The notes beneath the pieces are model-generated. The model was not told where the DNA came from. It worked only from the letters and a program-made list of their open reading frames with translations, and searched no databases. Positions 4,126-26,236 of a stretch of DNA of 35,848 nucleotides are shown in pieces. Position 1 is the first letter of the stretch. Each line of letters begins with the position of its first letter. A program made the translations under genes and the position numbers. This DNA comes from a candidate division WOR-3 bacterium (lineage in GTDB: Bacteria; Hydrothermota; Tepidihabitantia; Tepidihabitantales; DTDR01), in the NCBI GenBank assembly GCA_039801845.1, contig JBDRVL010000001.1, forward strand, positions 1-35,848. Reading direction: 5' to 3'.

Positions 4126-6484
4126 CTTCTAAGGGAGTTATTAATTTATCATTATTTATTAAATATTGTTCGACTCTTTTGATGGGCAAAGATCTTACAA
4201 TTTCTTCTGGCAATCCCAAAATCTTAGTGAGAGTAGAATAGAGCTTAACTCCCGGTTGAAAAGGCAAAAGGATTTCTCCCAGATTATCATAAATTCGAAA
4301 ATAATAAGAAGAAGTATCTAAATTTATTCTTTTAAAAATTTGTGGAGATAAAGAAATTTCATATTTTAGAAATTTAATTGATTTTCCTAAACTCGGTTTA
4401 TCTTTTTTTATCTCTTTAAAATCAACTATTATTAAATCCTTGGGCATAAAATTACCTAAATCTTTTATTAAATTATCATTATAATCAATTTTTAAGAAAA
4501 TGTCAAAATATTCGCTTTCAGAAATTACTCCTACTGGCAAAGGCGGACCAAAAGACACTAAATACCGAGGAGAAAAGCCAGCAGAATGAAGGACAGGTAA
4601 ACAAGACCGTCTGATTGTTCGATAGATTGCTCGAACAATATCTAAATGAGAAGCAAAACGGAAGTTTTCTCCTACCTTAAATTTTACTCGGAACCTTTTA
4701 TAAAGAGGAGAAAAAGATATCTGTTTTTGAAAAGGAGAGAATTTTTTAGATAAAGAAGGTTCTCTCTTATCAAATTTAAAGGAATCGGAATTTACTATTT
4801 CTTGATAAGATAAAGCTTTTTGATAATTTTCGATTAGAAAATTTTTTGATATACCCACATCAATAAATTCCCAGGGCAATGGTTCATTTATCTTTTTTTC
4901 TTTTAAATAATTTTTACTCTCAATCTGGTTTTTAAGGAAACTTTCAATCCAAATTTGATATTTGAAATGTTCTGTCCAATCTTGAAAGAATCCTTGATTT
5001 CTAAATACTTCTTCAATAACTGAGGATAATTTTTCATCGCCTCTTGCTAAAATTGCCTGAATTTCTGCTTGTTCTAAATTTTCATATTTTATTCGGATAT
5101 TTTTAAATTTTATTAGATTTTTTAATGTTTTAATTTTTTCTAAAAGCACTTTTTTATCTTCAAAACCACAAAATTGAAAAGGAGTATGGGGCTTAGGAAC
5201 AAAAGGAGAAATAGAAATTCGTAGCTGTTTAGGATTAGCGATTTTTCCCAGAAAATTTAAAAAGTAAGCAATTTCTTTTATATCTTCTTCTTTTTCTGTG
5301 GGCAAACCAATCATAAAATAAAATTTAATTCCCTGCCAATTATTATTTATTAAATTTTCTACTGCTTGAACAATTTTTTCATTAGAAATTTCTTTATTGA
5401 TAACCTTTTTTAAACGTGGAGAAATAGTTTCGGGAGCGAAAGTTATTCCAGTTTTTTTAATAAGACGAAGTTGATTCACAATTTCTTCATTGAGATCTTC
5501 GCCACGGAGAGAAGGGAGAGAGAGGGCAACCAAATAAGGATGTAAAATTTCGTTTAAAGAATTTAAGAGAGAAGCAAGATTAGGATAATCGCCTGCCGAA
5601 AAAGAGAGTAAGGAAATTTCTTCGTATCCTGATGCTTTTATTGCGCGGAGCGCTAATCTTTTAATATCTTCTATTGGCCGAATTCTTACTGGTCGATTAG
5701 TAAATCCTGCCTGACAAAAACGACATCCCCGACCGCAACCACGAGAAATCTCAATTGTTAAATGGTCATGAACAATTTCACAAATAGGTACCAGAGGTGG
5801 AAAAGGAAAATCATCTTCTTTTAATTCTTTTATGTATCTTCTTTTTATAATTTTTTCTCTTCTATGGATTAATGGAACATAGATACCTTCTAAATTTGCT
5901 AAATTCTCTAAAAGCGCCTTTTTGTTATTTTTATAGTTTTGATAGATTTCCACAATTTCTAAAATTGCTTCTTCACCATCACCGATAACAAAAGCATCAA
6001 TAAATGGTGCCATTGGCAAAGGATTCACAGAGCAAGGTCCGCCAGCAATAATTAATGGATAATTGCCATTAAGACGTTCTTCGGTACGAATAGGTATTTT
6101 GCCTAACGATAGACAATATAAAACATTGGGATAATTTAATTCCGATTGTAAAGAGAAACCGATAATGTCGAATTTAAATAAAGGTAATTTATTTTCTAGG
6201 GAAAATAGAGGTATAGCATACTCTTTTAATTTTTTGCCAAAATCAAGAGCAGGTGCATAACTCCTTTCACAAATAGTGTTTTCATGATGATTTAATTTTG
6301 AATAAAGAATTTTTAATCCATAATTAGACATACCAATTTCATAAATTTCCGGAAAAATTAAACAAACTTTAATTGTTTCTTTTTTAATAAAGAGAGGAAA
6401 AAGATTGTATTCGCCACCAGTATACCTAATAGGTTTTGTGACGAGCGGCAAAAGGTTCAAAAATTTTTTATTATTTTTATTCAC
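4118..6484 (-). CDS. radical SAM protein, fused TIGR03960-like N-terminal and DUF2344/TIGR03936-like C-terminal parts
   Basis: 788 aa. Has a B12-binding-like N-terminal region and a radical SAM cysteine motif (SRGCGRGCRFCQAG). The C-terminal half (RFASHLDIVRAIYRTIRR) resembles the radical-SAM-linked DUF2344 family. Overlaps rng by 8 nt. Confidence 0.7.
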   Translation of the reverse strand: MNKNNKKFLNLLPLVTKPIRYTGGEYNLFPLFIKKETIKVCLIFPEIYEIGMSNYGLKILYSKLNHHENTICERSYAPALDFGKKLKEYAIPLFSLENKLPLFKFDIIGFSLQSELNYPNVLYCLSLGKIPIRTEERLNGNYPLIIAGGPCSVNPLPMAPFIDAFVIGDGEEAILEIVEIYQNYKNNKKALLENLANLEGIYVPLIHRREKIIKRRYIKELKEDDFPFPPLVPICEIVHDHLTIEISRGCGRGCRFCQAGFTNRPVRIRPIEDIKRLALRAIKASGYEEISLLSFSAGDYPNLASLLNSLNEILHPYLVALSLPSLRGEDLNEEIVNQLRLIKKTGITFAPETISPRLKKVINKEISNEKIVQAVENLINNNWQGIKFYFMIGLPTEKEEDIKEIAYFLNFLGKIANPKQLRISISPFVPKPHTPFQFCGFEDKKVLLEKIKTLKNLIKFKNIRIKYENLEQAEIQAILARGDEKLSSVIEEVFRNQGFFQDWTEHFKYQIWIESFLKNQIESKNYLKEKKINEPLPWEFIDVGISKNFLIENYQKALSYQEIVNSDSFKFDKREPSLSKKFSPFQKQISFSPLYKRFRVKFKVGENFRFASHLDIVRAIYRTIRRSCLPVLHSAGFSPRYLVSFGPPLPVGVISESEYFDIFLKIDYNDNLIKDLGNFMPKDLIIVDFKEIKKDKPSLGKSIKFLKYEISLSPQIFKRINLDTSSYYFRIYDNLGEILLPFQPGVKLYSTLTKILGLPEEIVRSLPIKRVEQYLINNDKLITPLEDD

Positions 6485-19918: not shown

Positions 19919-19924
19919 ATAATA

Positions 19925-19952
19925 AAAATAATAAAATTTCCTAAAAAGTCAA
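19925..19952 (-). promoter_or_regulatory. sigma70-like promoter of the 376-aa gene operon, positioned for a leaderless transcript
   Basis: Minus strand reads TTGACT (rc of 19947..19952), 16 nt, TATTTT (rc of 19925..19930), 6 nt, ATG (19918). Confidence 0.35.
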
Positions 19953-20012
19953 CCTAAAAAGAAATACAAAAAAATGAGATATTTGTTAAGATTAAATTAT
20001 AAGAAGAAAAAA

Positions 20013-20029
20013 TTTGCATATCATGCAAA
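20013..20029. promoter_or_regulatory. perfect palindrome TTTGCAT-atc-ATGCAAA (possible operator)
   Basis: 7-bp perfect inverted arms with a 3-nt spacer. Lies in the 518-bp non-coding stretch at the left border of the island. Confidence 0.2.
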
Positions 20030-20095
20030 AAATTTTTAGACAGAAAAAATTTCTAAGTCCTTGTATTTCAAATACTTATTTAAAATTTGTGATAA

Positions 20096-20126
20096 AGATA
20101 GGGAGCGTCTCCCTCCTATCTTTTAT
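20096..20126 (+). terminator. GC-rich stem-loop followed by a T-run (terminator-like or structured RNA element)
   Basis: AGATA-GGGAG-cgt-CTCCC-(tcc bulge)-TATCT followed by TTTAT. The GGGAGCGTCTCCC core stands out in this AT-rich DNA. It lies inside the doubtful 90-aa ORF. Confidence 0.25.
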
Positions 20127-20376
20127 GTTCGTCTTAAGAAATATCCTAATCTTCGTCTTATTAATTATCTTTATGATGGACTTATGAGAGGTTTTATTGT
20201 TCTACTTGTGAAGGGTCTTATCAAAGGATCTGATAAGACTTTTATCGTTCATTTTCATAAGCATCTTGCTGTTAATTTGTCGAAGTATACTCCTGGCGAT
20301 AGTGGTAAGTCTTGGATGTTAAATCTTTTGTAAATATAAAATTGTTAATACATCTTAACATCTTTACTTTTTCTTC

Positions 20377-20405
20377 TTGACATTTCATAAATTTTTAAGT
20401 AATAT
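20377..20405 (+). promoter_or_regulatory. sigma70-like promoter of the TPR-CHAT gene
   Basis: TTGACA (20377..20382), 17 nt, TAATAT (20400..20405), with a 31-nt leader. Shares the 15-mer TTGACATTTCATAAA with the promoter at 23025. Confidence 0.45.
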
Positions 20406-20436
20406 TTAAACATTAGAAATTGAAAGAAAGGTTAAA

Positions 20437-23028
20437 ATGGATGAGTTATCAAAATTGGTTTTAGAGTTAGTTGATAAGTTTTCTGAGTCGGAAGATTTCA
20501 TTAAGGCGGTTGAGGATAAATATAGTCATATTTCAGAAAAGGAAAAGGGAGATTTATTTTTAGAAATTGGTATTCGGCTTTATAACTTCTCTTATTTTCG
20601 TTTGGCGATAGAGGTTTTAAATAAGGCACTTTCTTATTATTTTAAATATAAAGATAAGGCGGGCGAAGGTAAATGCTACACAAATCTTGGCGAGGCTTAT
20701 AGAAATCTTGGTGAATTTTATAAGTCGATAGAGTATCAAGAGAAGGCATTAGAGATATTTAAAGAGATAGGAGATAGGCGAGGAGAGGGTGATTGCTACA
20801 GAGGTCTTGGCAATGCCTATTTTTTTCTTGGTGATTTTTATAAATCAATAGAGTATCTAGAGAAGGCATTAGAGATATTTAAAGAGATAGGAGATAGGCG
20901 AGGAGAGGTTAAATGCTATATAGGTCTTGGTAATGCCTATAATTCGTTAGGTGAATTTGGTAAGTCGATAGAATTTTATAACAAGTCATTAGAGATACGT
21001 AAGACAATAGGAGATAGGCTGGGAGAGGGTGCTTGCTACACAAATCTTGGCACTGCCTATTATTCTCTTGGTGATTTTTATAAATCGATAGAGTATTATA
21101 ACAAGGCATTAGATATAGATAAAGAGATAGGATATAGGCAAGGAGAGAGTAAATGTTACAGAAATCTTGGCAATGCCTATCTTTCTCTTGGTGATTTTTA
21201 TAAATCGATAGAGTATTATAACAAGGCATTAGATATATCTAAGACAATAGGAGATAGGCGAGGAGAGGGTGCTTGCTACACAAATCTTGGCACTGCTTAT
21301 TATTTTCTTGGTGATTTTTATAAATCGATAGAGTATTATAACAAGGCATTAGATATATTTAAGGCGATAGGAGATAGGCTGGGAGAGGGTGCTTGCTACA
21401 TAAATCTTGGCGAGGTTTATAGAAATCTTGGTGAATTTTATAAATCGATAGAGTATCAAGAAAAGGCATTAGAGATATGCAAGGAAATAGGAGATATTTA
21501 TGGTGAAAAAATATGTCTTGATAACCTTGGCTGGATATATTTAGGAAAAGAAGATTATCTTAAAGCAGAGGAATATTTTGAAGAAGGTATTAAAAAATAT
21601 GAAGAGTTAACAAGAGATAAACTACCAAAAGACCCAAAAGAGAGGAAAGATTTTTTGAAGGGAAGCATTTCTCTTTTTGATGGTATGGTAATAACCCAAA
21701 TAAAATTAGGGAATAAAGAGAAGGCATTAGAATATTCGGAAATGGGAAAAGGAAGGACGATTTTAGATTTCATTATTTATAAAGGAATAGAGAAAGAAGA
21801 GGTTAAACAATCATTAAACTTTCAGAGGATAAAAGATTTAGCAAAGGAGATTGGAAGGACAATTCTCTTATTTAGGATTACTGAGAAAGGGAGTTATACA
21901 TTTATTATTAAACCAAGAGATGGTTTTGAATTTATAACTATTCCGGAATTTAATAGCAAAAGATTAGATGAGATAATGGTAAAGTATGAAGATAATAAGC
22001 CAGTGGATGGTTGGGTTTATAGATATTCTAAATATAAAAATATGGTCAGTAATTTTGTAAGGTTTGCTTTCGAGAGAGGAGAGAAGGAGGCAAAGGAAAT
22101 CTTGGAGAAGGAGAGAGATAATTGGTTTAACACCTTAAAGCCTTTATATGAGGAGTTATTGGCAGAGGTTTTTGAAGGTAAAATATTTGAGAAAGGTGAG
22201 AAGATTGTAATCATTCCCAATAAAGGGTTAAATATCTTGCCTATTCATGCCTGTCAAAAAGAGGATGGCAAGTATCTCATTGATGAGTATGAGATAACCT
22301 ATGCTCCCAACTGTTCTCTTTTGGATTTATGTTATCGAAGGGAGAAGGAAAGGAAAAGGGATAGTTTCTTTGCCATTGCTAATCCAACAGGCGACATTCC
22401 TTTTTCTGAGACAGAGGTAAAAGAGATTGAGAAATTATTCATTAATAAAGAGATACACAGAGAGAGGATAGTAAAAGATATTTTGCTGAATAATGTAGAT
22501 AAATATAATATAATTCATTTTTCAACGCATGGTACTTATCATTTAGGTTCTGCTTTTAATTCCCTTTTATATTTAGGGGTTAATGAGTATTTAACCCTTT
22601 CTGAGATTTTTGAGAAGGTGAAACTTCCCAATAGTTGGCTTGTTTCCCTTTCTGCTTGTGAGACTGCTTTAATTGATTATCGTGATATTGCTGATGAGAG
22701 TATTGGTTTACATACTGGTTTTCTCTATGCCGGAGCACCAACTGTGATTGCCACTCTTTGGACAGTTGCTGATATTTCAACTGCCTTAATTATGATAAGG
22801 ACCTATGACAATATATTTAATAAGAATATGGGTAAGGGAGAGGCATTAAGGAAAGCCCAGTTATGGTTAAAGGAGGCGACAAAGAAAGAATTAATAGATT
22901 GGGCAAAAGGGAAATCATCGTATATTTTAGGGTTATTAACAAGTTCTCTTTCTCTATTTAAGGATAATGATAAACCCTTTTCCCATCCTTATTACTGGTC
23001 GGGTTTCCAATGCTTTGGTACTCATTGA
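20437..23028 (+). CDS. TPR-repeat / CHAT-domain (caspase-fold) protease
   Basis: 863 aa. Residues about 76-355 are seven near-identical 40-aa TPR units (GEGxCYxNLGxAYxxLGDFYKSIEYxxKALxIxKxIGDRx) flanked by degenerate units. The C-terminal CHAT-like domain has HFSTHG (His698, nt 22528..22530), SLSACETA (Cys741, nt 22657..22659) and a terminal HPYYWSGFQCFG. Confidence 0.9.
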   Translation: MDELSKLVLELVDKFSESEDFIKAVEDKYSHISEKEKGDLFLEIGIRLYNFSYFRLAIEVLNKALSYYFKYKDKAGEGKCYTNLGEAYRNLGEFYKSIEYQEKALEIFKEIGDRRGEGDCYRGLGNAYFFLGDFYKSIEYLEKALEIFKEIGDRRGEVKCYIGLGNAYNSLGEFGKSIEFYNKSLEIRKTIGDRLGEGACYTNLGTAYYSLGDFYKSIEYYNKALDIDKEIGYRQGESKCYRNLGNAYLSLGDFYKSIEYYNKALDISKTIGDRRGEGACYTNLGTAYYFLGDFYKSIEYYNKALDIFKAIGDRLGEGACYINLGEVYRNLGEFYKSIEYQEKALEICKEIGDIYGEKICLDNLGWIYLGKEDYLKAEEYFEEGIKKYEELTRDKLPKDPKERKDFLKGSISLFDGMVITQIKLGNKEKALEYSEMGKGRTILDFIIYKGIEKEEVKQSLNFQRIKDLAKEIGRTILLFRITEKGSYTFIIKPRDGFEFITIPEFNSKRLDEIMVKYEDNKPVDGWVYRYSKYKNMVSNFVRFAFERGEKEAKEILEKERDNWFNTLKPLYEELLAEVFEGKIFEKGEKIVIIPNKGLNILPIHACQKEDGKYLIDEYEITYAPNCSLLDLCYRREKERKRDSFFAIANPTGDIPFSETEVKEIEKLFINKEIHRERIVKDILLNNVDKYNIIHFSTHGTYHLGSAFNSLLYLGVNEYLTLSEIFEKVKLPNSWLVSLSACETALIDYRDIADESIGLHTGFLYAGAPTVIATLWTVADISTALIMIRTYDNIFNKNMGKGEALRKAQLWLKEATKKELIDWAKGKSSYILGLLTSSLSLFKDNDKPFSHPYYWSGFQCFGTH
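20662..21501 (+). repeat. intragenic tandem repeat, 7 x 120 bp (TPR units)
   Basis: Exact 120-bp periodicity. A 52-nt block is identical at 21066..21117, 21186..21237 and 21306..21357. Units 1 and 7 resemble each other closely, as do units 4 and 6. Confidence 0.9.
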
Positions 23029-23052
23029 CATTTCATAAAATTGGTTTATAAT
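23025..23052 (+). promoter_or_regulatory. sigma70-like promoter of the three downstream cassette genes
   Basis: TTGACA (23025..23030, overlapping the TPR-CHAT TGA stop at 23026..23028), 16 nt, TATAAT (23047..23052). A 20-nt leader with GGAGG follows. Confidence 0.45.
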
Positions 23053-23072
23053 TTTTTAAATGGAGGAAAATT

Positions 23073-23525
23073 ATGAAAAAGAAATTATATTGTCCAAAAG
23101 ATGGAAGTTTGTTAGAAGAGATTAAAGTTGGAAAGACAGTTGTTGACCAATGTCCTAAATGTCAAGGTGTTTGGTTTGATTTTAAAGGCGACGAACTTAT
23201 CAAAATTCTTGCGTTGGGATATGATAATTTACCGGAAAAATTGAAAGAGAGTTGGGAAGAAGGAGGTGGACAACTAACATTAACTGAAAATAGAGAATAT
23301 AAATGTCCCCGCTGTGGCAATGAACTTTCTACTTATTGGTATCTTGGAGAAAAAGATAGAACTTTTCTTGTTGATGGCTGTTTAAAAGGGTGCGGAGTCT
23401 GGCTTGATGATGGAGAATTAAAAAAGGCTTATCAATTTATAAAACCTTCTGTATCAGAGATAAAAGAAAAAGAAATAAAAGAGGGAATTTTTAAAAAGTT
23501 ATGGAATTATTTGAGAGAAAGATAA
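23073..23525 (+). CDS. tandem zf-TFIIB-like zinc-ribbon protein
   Basis: 150 aa with two copies of the pattern CPxC...L......vDxCxxCxGvWxDxgEL. Copy 1 is CPKDG...DQCPKCQGVWFDFKGDEL, with a degenerate first knuckle. Copy 2 is CPRCGNEL...VDGCLKGCGVWLDDGELKKA. Strong GGAGG RBS. Confidence 0.7.
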   Translation: MKKKLYCPKDGSLLEEIKVGKTVVDQCPKCQGVWFDFKGDELIKILALGYDNLPEKLKESWEEGGGQLTLTENREYKCPRCGNELSTYWYLGEKDRTFLVDGCLKGCGVWLDDGELKKAYQFIKPSVSEIKEKEIKEGIFKKLWNYLRER

Positions 23526-23536
23526 AAGGAGGAAAA

Positions 23537-23917
23537 ATGGATACAGAAATGGTTGTGTATTTGTTAGAAGAGAGGTTAGAAGAAATAAAGAAGAATCTCG
23601 CTGATTTCTGGCAAGAATTTCTCAAGGAATTGAAGAGCCTTTCGGAGGATTTAATTGCTGATAAAAAAGACTTAGAAAAATGGACGGAAAATATGATTCG
23701 GCTTCTTAAAAAATATGAATATACTTGTGGTCTTTTAGAAGGGTTTAATACGAGAATCCGTTTTATCATAAGGGGAATACCAAGCGCATTAGAAACTTAT
23801 CAGCCTGAGGAGATTCCTGATATTCCCAGTGGCAAAATTTCTGCTTCAAAAAAATATGAAGAAGAAATTGTTAACCGAATAAAGAATATCGTTAAAAAAG
23901 CCGAGGAATTAAAATAA
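23537..23917 (+). CDS. small helical hypothetical protein (about 126 aa)
   Basis: The ATG at 23537 lies 5 nt after AAGGAGG. The ORF track's 23501 start overlaps the previous gene and lacks an RBS. The sequence is charged and heptad-like (LEERLEEIKKNLADFWQEFLKELKSL). I recognise no family. Confidence 0.55.
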   Translation: MDTEMVVYLLEERLEEIKKNLADFWQEFLKELKSLSEDLIADKKDLEKWTENMIRLLKKYEYTCGLLEGFNTRIRFIIRGIPSALETYQPEEIPDIPSGKISASKKYEEEIVNRIKNIVKKAEELK

Positions 23918-23926
23918 AATTAAAAA

Positions 23927-25231
23927 GTGCTCATTAAAGACCCAACCTTATATCAATTTATTTTTCTTTTTCGTTGGCATTCATTGGAAAAAAAAGAGGA
24001 ATTTGAATGGCATAAAGAAGCAATCAGAAATTTCTTTTTAGAAGCTTGGGAAAAAGTAGGTCCGAAAGCACCGTTTCCGGAGGCAGAGGTAGATAAATTT
24101 TTAAACGAAACAGAGAATTTTCTTTTTGCCCACGAAAAAATCGAAAATTTATTTAAGGATATTCGGATATTGAATTCGGGAGTAAAAAGCGGCGATCAAC
24201 CAAATTTAAAATTAGAATTGGAAATTCGTGCTTACGATGATGCTGTCCGAATAGAAATTAGTTATCTTTTAGAAGGAGAATATCCTCCCAATTCTTTTTT
24301 AATAATAAAAAACGAACTTTTAGATACAAGCAAATTGAAGAAAGAGCCGAGTGGTCGTCACGTTTATATTGGTGAAACCTATTATCCAGCATTCCAAATT
24401 GAAAAGTGCGAAGAGCAAGAAGCAAGAAAAATTGCCTCAGAAATTATGAAATATCTTAGTTATCCAGAAGACGAATTTAATATTCTGGAATTTAATTGGG
24501 GGTATTTAGCCATCAACCAAAGTAAGAAAGAGAATCCGATAATTCTTTATTGGGATGAGAATGAAAATAAATGGTTGATAGCTAAACTTGTCCATAAGAT
24601 TTTTTCTTTTCTCTTTTTAAATCGTTACAAATTCTTTTATATTCTAAAATCTTATTTTGACTTACAAGATAAACTTAATAGAGAAGAGCGGGAGATAAAT
24701 GATTTATGTATTCGGGCTTTAAAAGAGGTGGAACTAAAAAGAAGTGAAAAAGATATTAATATTTTAAAAAGGATGGAAGCAAGTACTGTAGAATTAAGCC
24801 AAGTTCTTACCGGTTATGTTCAAAATCTTGCCATCCTTAAAGGATATATAAAAGAGGTTGAAGTTTTATTAGAAGGAATAGAGAAACTTTTAGGAGAGAG
24901 TTCTTTGCGAGAGAAAAATAATTCTTTGGTTGATTTTTGGACGAAAGATATAAAATCTACCAAAGAACAATTAAATACGAATTTAAATTTCTATTGGCTG
25001 ACAAAAGAAACCGGCGATTCTACCTTAGATTTTCTTTATAAAATAGCCGAAATAAGAGATAGTCAATGGGATAGATTTACTAATTTTTTAGTCGGAATTC
25101 TTTCCGCTTGGGCAATCCTTGATGTATTTGAAGCCAACCTATCCTGGTGGATAAGAATTATTCTATTGTTTATACTTGCTCCTGCTTTCTATTTTCTTTT
25201 GCCAAAACTTCGTATCTGGTTAAAAATGTAG
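23927..25231 (+). CDS. hypothetical protein with coiled-coil middle and C-terminal two-TM hairpin (candidate membrane effector)
   Basis: 434 aa, with a GTG start 9 nt after the previous stop (start uncertain). The last 52 aa (nt 25073..25228) contain two hydrophobic helices, FLVGILSAWAILDVF and WWIRIILLFILAPAFYFLLP. I recognise no family. Confidence 0.55.
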   Translation: MLIKDPTLYQFIFLFRWHSLEKKEEFEWHKEAIRNFFLEAWEKVGPKAPFPEAEVDKFLNETENFLFAHEKIENLFKDIRILNSGVKSGDQPNLKLELEIRAYDDAVRIEISYLLEGEYPPNSFLIIKNELLDTSKLKKEPSGRHVYIGETYYPAFQIEKCEEQEARKIASEIMKYLSYPEDEFNILEFNWGYLAINQSKKENPIILYWDENENKWLIAKLVHKIFSFLFLNRYKFFYILKSYFDLQDKLNREEREINDLCIRALKEVELKRSEKDINILKRMEASTVELSQVLTGYVQNLAILKGYIKEVEVLLEGIEKLLGESSLREKNNSLVDFWTKDIKSTKEQLNTNLNFYWLTKETGDSTLDFLYKIAEIRDSQWDRFTNFLVGILSAWAILDVFEANLSWWIRIILLFILAPAFYFLLPKLRIWLKM

Positions 25232-25237
25232 GTATTA

Positions 25238-25269
25238 TCAATATCGTAATTTTACTCAATATCGTAATT

Positions 25270-25273
<4 letters not shown>
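25238..25273. repeat. perfect 18-bp tandem duplication (TCAATATCGTAATTTTAC x2)
   Basis: The copies lie at 25238..25255 and 25256..25273. They sit in the 38-bp convergent gap, and the second copy includes the purM stop codon plus 1 nt. Confidence 0.9.

Positions 25274-26236
<963 letters not shown>

Follow-up and report, generated by a model that had tools for sequence, protein, structure and literature searches.

A membrane protein of CorA-like architecture, proposed to serve a caspase-linked conflict module as its constant membrane component, in an accessory cassette of a candidate division WOR-3 bacterium

The stretch of DNA analysed here, which we call the window, comprises 35,848 nt (positions 1 to 35,848) of contig JBDRVL010000001.1 in the assembly GCA_039801845.1 of a candidate division WOR-3 bacterium. 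It contains a cassette of four genes on the + strand, which encode a TPR-CHAT protease, a zinc-ribbon protein, a helical protein of 126 amino acids (aa) and a protein of 434 aa, the last of which is the subject of this work. We establish here the gene, its family, its predicted fold, the conserved gene trio in which it is found and its accessory, patchy distribution, and as the best explanation for these observations we propose a caspase-linked conflict module of the CATRA type (CATRA, CASPASE and TPR Repeat-Associated protein; CATASP, CATRA-associated small protein), in which the 434-aa protein is the membrane component that stays constant. The gene and the parts of its product, including the two transmembrane (TM) helices, are the following.

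23927..25231, + strand: membrane protein gene, 434 aa, with CorA/Mrs2-like architecture (open reading frame, homologue searches, AlphaFold2 and Foldseek).
23927..24556, + strand: alpha/beta domain, predicted to be cytoplasmic, aa 1-210 (AlphaFold2 secondary structure and conservation in 45 sequences).
24560..25075, + strand: three long antiparallel helices, aa 212-269, 276-324 and 328-383 (AlphaFold2, periodicity and conservation).
25076..25129, + strand: TM1, aa 384-401, FTNFLVGILSAWAILDVF (hydropathy and family alignment).
25145..25228, + strand: TM2, aa 407-426, followed by the basic, predicted cytoplasmic tail PKLRIWLKM (hydropathy and family alignment).

The open reading frame at 23927..25231 (+) has 434 open codons and begins with a GTG that is not preceded by a Shine-Dalgarno sequence, for which reason a preliminary description of this DNA, made from its letters alone, had left the true start in doubt. 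A start upstream of the GTG is excluded by in-frame TAA stops at 23915 and 23921, and the GTG is the correct start despite the missing Shine-Dalgarno sequence because the N-terminal residues are conserved: every close homologue keeps the N-terminus IKDPTLYQ.IFLFRWH, and the conservation of D5 in the 45-sequence family alignment is 98%, which together with the upstream stops settles the doubt. The strand formed by residues 3-15 was modelled by AlphaFold2 with a predicted local distance difference test score (pLDDT) of 96. The gene starts 9 nt past the stop codon of the small gene before it; this pair of genes overlaps in relatives, which suggests that the translation of the two is coupled.

The AlphaFold2 model obtained from the 45-sequence alignment has a pLDDT of 92.7 and a predicted TM-score (pTM) of 0.84, and all five models exceed a pLDDT of 90. 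In residues 1-210, 8 strands and 4-5 helices make up a mixed alpha/beta domain, in agreement with what the preliminary description had read in residues 1 to about 210. Three long helices follow, the third of which spans residues 328-400 and runs unbroken into TM1; an amphipathic periodicity of 3.5-3.67 is significant in the first two (matched or exceeded in 8 and 16 of 2000 shuffles), and the loops between the helices, at 270-279 (pLDDT 74) and 325-327, are of lower confidence. The heptad-like helices formerly placed at residues 240-380 are real and slightly wider, at 212-400, but a coiled coil is not demonstrated: in the model the helices are predicted to pack as an antiparallel bundle, and the peptide that had been offered as an example of these helices crosses the loop at 270-275. 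At the C-terminus, the mean Kyte-Doolittle hydropathy of residues 384-432 is 1.42, against -0.28 for the whole protein, a value reached by 0 of 5000 shuffles, and two separate hydrophobic 17-mers within the last 60 aa were seen in 34 of 5000 shuffles. As the hairpin, with its basic tail and its acidic/aromatic loop, is common to 69 of the 74 full-length family members, the earlier claim of two hydrophobic C-terminal helices is borne out. The end of TM1 carries the family motif (D/Q)xF(P/S)E, at the place where the CorA motif is YGMNF; the loop between TM1 and TM2 is EANLS (aa 402-406), and the final helix of the model spans residues 407-432. According to the positive-inside rule, the N-terminal domain and the C-terminus would both be cytoplasmic.

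Foldseek comparison with the PDB placed Mrs2 and CorA chains at the top for two independent models (shallow and deep). The matches, to proteins from human, Chaetomium, yeast, Thermotoga, Methanocaldococcus, E. coli and Campylobacter, have E values of 1e-4 to 3e-2 and probabilities of up to 1.0, and they include the CorA soluble domain alone (8zak, 5n77), such that the likeness is not due to the TM hairpin alone. The order of elements in the model resembles that of CorA, Mrs2 and Alr1: an alpha/beta domain, three long helices with an unbroken passage from the last into TM1, an outer loop that is short, TM2 and a basic tail. As in CorA and Mrs2, a short loop links the two TM helices at the C-terminus, and both termini are predicted to be cytoplasmic by the positive-inside rule. 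The 434-aa protein differs from CorA, Mrs2 and Alr1 in a loop that reads FEANL or FPE, with GMN missing, in helices about 1.5 times longer, and in that its gene is accessory and protease-linked. We therefore describe the protein, as judged from its predicted structure, as CorA-shaped, a likeness of architecture only, and do not file it as a member of the CorA family. In the order to which the window belongs, about 30 genomes yielded no canonical CorA (PF01544), which is present in 41 of the 151 genomes of the phylum that were sampled.

The 434-aa protein, whose family is rare, has no match in Pfam (even at E<=10), NCBIfam or PADLOC. Its close homologues, obtained by a word-indexed search of 5.8 billion clusters, form five clusters that are 45-96% identical to it, and the sole one with a named source comes from a metagenome-assembled genome (MAG) of candidate division WOR-3. 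An exhaustive profile search of 1.84 billion representatives gave 94 proteins at E<=1e-3, 44 of them at E<=1e-10, nearly all with 400-470 aa and matched over the full length; the word-indexed search with the 45-sequence profile gave almost no further homologues. The distant subfamily represented by P0067 is large: clustering at 90% identity leaves 107 clusters, on contigs of up to 3 Mb. Several JGI records label members of this subfamily 'DnaJ-domain-containing protein 1', a name that looks spurious; a DnaJ domain was not detected in the family members scanned. A profile search of PDB sequences with the family returned coiled-coil noise only, and a viral fold library gave a weak full-length match to a giant-virus protein (E 0.013, probability 0.96) plus generic helical bundles.

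Positions conserved throughout the 45-sequence alignment sit in structured elements: D5, E99, R101, D105, G149 and G192 in the N-terminal domain; K235, E254, E284 (invariant), Q348 and Y355 in the long helices; R383 just before TM1; and F401, W407 and R410 at the outer mouth, the last two within TM2. The exposed loops between the helices contain no conserved residue or motif in the same alignment.

The remaining features of the cassette and of its right border are the following; the promoter sites were scored against the sigma-70 consensus.

20377..20405, + strand: promoter-like site upstream of the TPR-CHAT gene, TTGACA-17-TAATAT (10 of 12 positions match in the consensus scan).
20437..23028, + strand: caspase-like TPR-CHAT protease of 863 aa; about 7 TPRs, CHAT domain at the C-terminus (Pfam CHAT 2.3e-49, TPR_12 9.7e-73).
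23025..23052, + strand: perfect sigma-70 consensus TTGACA-16-TATAAT, overlapping the stop codon of the protease gene (consensus scan, 12 of 12 matches).
23073..23525, + strand: soluble protein, 150 aa, with a pair of TFIIB-type zinc ribbons and a basic, amphipathic tail (two stretches match Pfam PF13453, 8.7e-17).
23537..23917, + strand: helical partner protein, 126 aa, CATASP-like by position (homologous small genes directly upstream of the family gene in 15 of 15 aligned loci).
25238..25273, no strand: perfect tandem duplication of 18 bp, two copies of AATATCGTAATTTTACTC, at the right junction, including the purM stop codon (read directly).

The sequence at 23025..23052 is likely the promoter of the three downstream genes. 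A 15-mer of it, TTGACATTTCATAAA, recurs ahead of the TPR-CHAT gene (20377-20391), and this repetition suggests that the cassette has two similarly controlled transcription units; the promoter-like site at 20377..20405 is inside the cassette-specific DNA, which begins near 20287 according to flank mapping against two same-genus genomes (G005 and G001). The catalytic motifs of the protease, HFSTHG and LSACET, are intact in the alignment of the catalytic dyad. The zinc-ribbon gene is confined to the WOR-3 subfamily, in which it accompanies the cassette in L001, L002 and L003, and the other loci have no CxxC-rich equivalent. The gene of the 126-aa partner has a strong ribosome-binding site, AAAGGAGG, and its product shows the N-terminal motif L..IK.NLGD.W..F and an arginine, R79, in a Ser-rich linker. 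No Pfam family matches this protein or those small partners of relatives that were scanned; matches of the small protein to ZorA (E about 3e-3) and a weak match to an ISL3 transposase were judged to be coiled-coil noise.

Flank mapping in five genomes of the same genus places the cassette-specific DNA from about 20287 to 25268, that is, about 5 kb between a gene of 376 aa and purM, with the right flank beginning at about 25268-25277. In G001 the left and right flanks are 18 bp apart (L019, ~5440-5480), and the cassette is therefore a clean insertion of about 5 kb; in G004 and G005 the distance between the flanks is 587 and 828 bp, and G002 has the cassette at the same site as the window genome. 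Members of the family turned up in 3 of 31 related genomes and were absent from 4 of the 5 of the same genus and from 24 of the 25 of the same order. Judged from these sequence comparisons, the cassette is accessory and mobile, with the four genes as its whole content. It had been suggested that the 434-aa protein belongs to a CHAT cassette, and it is indeed a conserved membrane component encoded beside a CHAT protease in an accessory insertion; the opposite prospect, that it might prove homologous to a housekeeping membrane protein, was also checked, and the clean insertion and patchy distribution are not those of a housekeeping gene.

Within the genus, the gap between the 376-aa gene and purM (window 19919-25270) is a hotspot of variable content: it is empty in G001 (18 bp), the CHAT cassette occupies it in G000 and G002, and G005 has at the same site a different gene of 260 aa (L012, 5832-6614) with a weak, sub-threshold match to the UDG superfamily (E 0.006). 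The 18-bp duplication at the right junction was considered as a classical target-site duplication and rejected, since both copies are at one end of the insert. To the left, at window 20009-20165 (within 19985-20200), there is a dispersed repeat of about 150 bp with a GGGAG-CGT-CTCCC hairpin, of which 4 copies are found in the incomplete window genome (73-80% identity) and more than 20 across the same-genus genomes. G004 and G005, both cassette-free, have the repeat at the same intergenic position, and it is therefore resident DNA outside the insertion; Rfam gave no match at the left border or in this repeat.

The small gene lies directly upstream of the family gene in every locus examined, about 16 from distant bacteria, and in the 15 aligned loci it encodes homologous proteins of 117-144 aa. 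These relatives share a third helix, Y.YT.GLL.GW, and the arginine is conserved in 14 of the 15 sequences, followed by a Ser/Thr-rich acidic linker. The third gene varies. Among the loci examined the commonest third partner is a TPR-CHAT protease, which is upstream of the pair in the WOR-3 subfamily (window, L001, L002/L003) and downstream of it in L022, L056, L057, L060, L069/L070 and L071; all of these have the neighbourhood expected of CATRA, a CHAT protease with TPRs. The exceptions are three loci with kinase partners, namely a Ser/Thr kinase-TPR protein in L021 (4222-5436) and, in L023 (4883-6316) and L024 (4840-6324), a fusion of a Ser/Thr kinase with an FGE-sulfatase (FGS-type) domain. 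In L004 the neighbours are uncharacterised, and the locus is beside a type I restriction-modification system and an nSTAND gene. The catalytic dyad of CHAT is kept in 9 of 10 partner proteases. The genome of L001 belongs to another family of the same order, and there the same four genes adjoin the gene for valyl-tRNA synthetase.

The architecture of the 434-aa protein fits a channel or pore, and a membrane effector is therefore its most likely role. We give a probability of roughly one half to the proposal that it is an oligomeric channel or pore effector controlled, via the small partner, by the protease. Together, the components would probably make up a bacterial defence or cell-death 'kill switch' that is operated by an enzyme at the membrane. 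The 434-aa protein would assemble in the inner membrane as an oligomeric, probably pentameric, channel or pore, and the co-translated helical partner of about 125 aa would keep it closed or help to set its state. The TPR-CHAT protease would sense a trigger through its TPR array, perhaps aided by the double zinc-ribbon protein, and would then cleave a component of the membrane complex, the best candidate substrate being the small partner at its Arg-containing linker; in relatives, a kinase would phosphorylate the same component instead. Opening of the channel would lead to ion leak, depolarisation and growth arrest or death. Oligomerisation, channel activity, substrate, trigger and defence role are all steps that we infer.

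The small subunit is favoured as the modified target because the large protein has no conserved exposed loop and the small partner has a conserved arginine in its linker. In addition, the varying partners each combine a sensor domain (TPR, FGS) with a protein-modifying enzyme, such that a sensor-enzyme acting on a constant membrane complex is the most economical arrangement, and the switch of partner between CHAT and kinase fits an enzyme of this kind acting on a constant target. With more reserve, and as something possible rather than probable, we propose that a channel of CorA architecture acts here as a stand-alone immune effector gated by cleavage or phosphorylation of a dedicated small subunit and not by a ligand. 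The membrane effector of the preliminary description is in this way partly retained: a channel or pore architecture fits, but an effector of the free pore-forming hairpin type is unsupported.

Several observations weigh against the proposal of an enzyme-controlled channel. The TM-scores of the CorA and Mrs2 matches are just 0.2-0.36, with root-mean-square deviations of 12-18 A. GMN is absent from the end of TM1, where the window protein reads DVFEANL and the family consensus is (D/Q)xF(P/S)E. The Pfam model of CorA, PF01544, does not match the 434-aa protein, either in the Pfam search at E<=10 or in a PF01544 search of its own genome, and an hhalign comparison with 26 CorA sequences of the same phylum, picked by GMN in the last 90 residues (those shown read YGMNF), gave a probability of 6.7%, the lone aligned stretch being the segment of the stalk before TM1; on these two negative results, membership of CorA by sequence was rejected. 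None of the PADLOC defence models matches the 434-aa protein itself, and the host is an uncultured WOR-3 bacterium. The protease of L001 (~810-830, WOR-3 MAG GCA_039801905.1) has a tyrosine in place of the catalytic histidine, STYG versus STHG, with the CHAT Cys motif and the other three cassette genes intact, and this could reflect an inactive protease, early decay or an assembly error. Moreover, the arginine of the small protein is conserved also where the partner is a kinase, and the logic of ternary systems could allow the constant pair to be the regulator and the enzyme the output.

This last arrangement is the alternative that deserves most attention, although we consider it unlikely. 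The 434-aa protein and its small partner would then be a membrane sensor or anchor that restrains TPR-CHAT; on detecting a disturbance (ion flux, damage to the envelope or the entry of a phage, for example), the pair would free the protease (or kinase) to hit cellular targets. CorA is itself a ligand-gated sensor of cytoplasmic Mg2+. The constancy of the small and large pair, with an enzyme that alternates between CHAT and kinase, is as expected for a regulator, since the constant core is usually regulatory in the ternary conflict systems described (PMC7159879); caspase-like proteases can also be killing effectors themselves (cited in PMC12642450). However, the variable partners bring sensor-type domains of their own (TPR, FGE-sulfatase/FGS), which suits a sensor-transducer role for them, a kinase is improbable as a terminal killer, and L001 retains the cassette despite the His-to-Tyr change in its protease.

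We find it improbable that CHAT cuts the 434-aa protein itself, freeing the helices and the hairpin from an autoinhibitory N-terminal domain to make pores in the manner of gasdermin or EACC1. Bacterial gasdermins and EACC1 are precedents (PMC12642450), and loops of lower confidence lie at 270-279 and 325-327 between the long helices, but these loops have no family-conserved residue, the fold is predicted to be integrated, with the stalk helix continuous with TM1, the hairpin is probably resident in the membrane before any cut, and such a mechanism is impossible for the relatives with kinase partners. The release by CHAT cleavage that had been imagined earlier is thus disfavoured by the lack of a conserved motif in exposed loops and by the replacement of the protease by a kinase in some relatives. 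Least probable of all, and by our estimate very improbable, is a physiological cation channel, that is, a divergent CorA-type transporter of Mg2+ or another ion that is regulated proteolytically and has no role in conflict. It would agree with the CorA/Mrs2-like architecture and with the canonical CorA not found in about 30 genomes of the order, but it is at odds with the negative GMN, Pfam and hhalign results, with the absence of the gene from most genomes of the genus and order and its clean insertion at a variable site, and with the constant tie to a protease or kinase with sensor repeats.

Caspase-like proteases are emerging as common switches in bacterial immunity, and to our knowledge few of their targets are known, namely gasdermin, EACC1, Pepco, an MBL nuclease and Csx30. 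If the proposed enzyme-controlled channel is true, it would add a new kind of target, a resident membrane protein with the architecture of an ion channel and a dedicated small subunit, and would represent both a new mode of control for the CorA architecture and a bacterial counterpart of caspase-controlled membrane permeabilisation. The wiring of the same pair to kinases hints at a general 'modify subunit, open channel' logic. This type of system was predicted before; the family appears structurally informative, as known here from sequence and predicted structure. The computationally predicted CATRA-type systems gain a concrete structural hypothesis and are extended to the uncultured, small-genome WOR-3 lineages, in which defence is barely known.

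CATRA and CATASP were reportedly first described by Burroughs and Aravind in the Journal of Bacteriology in 2020; the name CATRA is not used in the eLife paper of 2020. The ternary system is known from comparative genomics only (PMC8195603, PMC12642450), and the window resembles it in the linked trio of a caspase-like protease with TPRs, a protein of about 430 aa and a small protein of about 125 aa. Six of 80 family members match CATRA-C (PF20270), all below threshold, with a best E of 2.8e-4. In P0067 the match aligns residues 228-349 with positions 18-137 of the model, at 16.4 bits for a cut-off of 24.6, and maps onto the long helices; the recurrence of this weak match at a consistent position suggests distant kinship. 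The window protein itself does not match PF20270, a search with this model in its own genome and in 272 genomes of the phylum gave nothing above the cut-off, and no other CATRA-type (CATRA-N) or CATASP-type Pfam model is among the matches listed for family members or small partners. The P0067 homologues have no precomputed Pfam domain. The window cassette differs from CATRA/CATASP in having the protease gene first, an extra double zinc-ribbon gene and a family whose sequence is sub-threshold, and the CorA-like two-TM architecture sets the window protein apart in a comparison in which CATRA is represented by the Pfam model and citing papers only.

Type III-E Craspase consists of Cas7-11 with the TPR-CHAT protease Csx29, Csx30, Csx31 and RpoE, and the likeness to the window is that of a TPR-CHAT protease with small uncharacterised partners. 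This assignment was rejected: the insertion is without Cas7-11, CRISPR array or sigma factor, and the NCBIfam Csx29 model gives 84 bits on the protease, under its cut-off of 300 bits. The free hairpin of the SLATT, CBASS 2TM or gasdermin type that the preliminary description had in mind did not hold up, as the model is one integrated fold with CorA and Mrs2 as best Foldseek matches. Effectors of the SLATT, CBASS 2TM and Pycsar TM types were rejected on the basis of their different architecture and of the lack of Pfam or PADLOC matches; PycTM matches 1 of 35 distant family members (E 0.011). A bacterial gasdermin was rejected as well, given that there is no match to its sequence family, that the C-terminus is a TM hairpin and that none is among the Foldseek matches listed.

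Pore formers licensed by a protease, namely EACC1 with a caspase, Pepco with trypsin and bacterial gasdermin (PMC12642450), share with the cassette a defence-type protease beside a non-enzymatic protein for which membrane permeabilisation is predicted or has been shown; EACC1 and Pepco are precedents for the proposed reading. These pore formers are small soluble propeptides that insert after cleavage, whereas the window protein has 434 aa, a resident TM hairpin, a channel-like fold and a separate small partner. A further precedent comes from type III CRISPR defence, in which a membrane effector of the CorA family is activated by S-adenosylmethionine-AMP (SAM-AMP) (PMC12255297). The four-gene insertion contains no CRISPR, cyclase or nucleotide-signal gene. 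The SAM-AMP effector and the 434-aa protein, if the latter acts as proposed, would have in common a CorA-type membrane protein as the immune output; the former is governed by a nucleotide signal from Cas10, whereas the partner of the latter is a protease in the window and a kinase in relatives.

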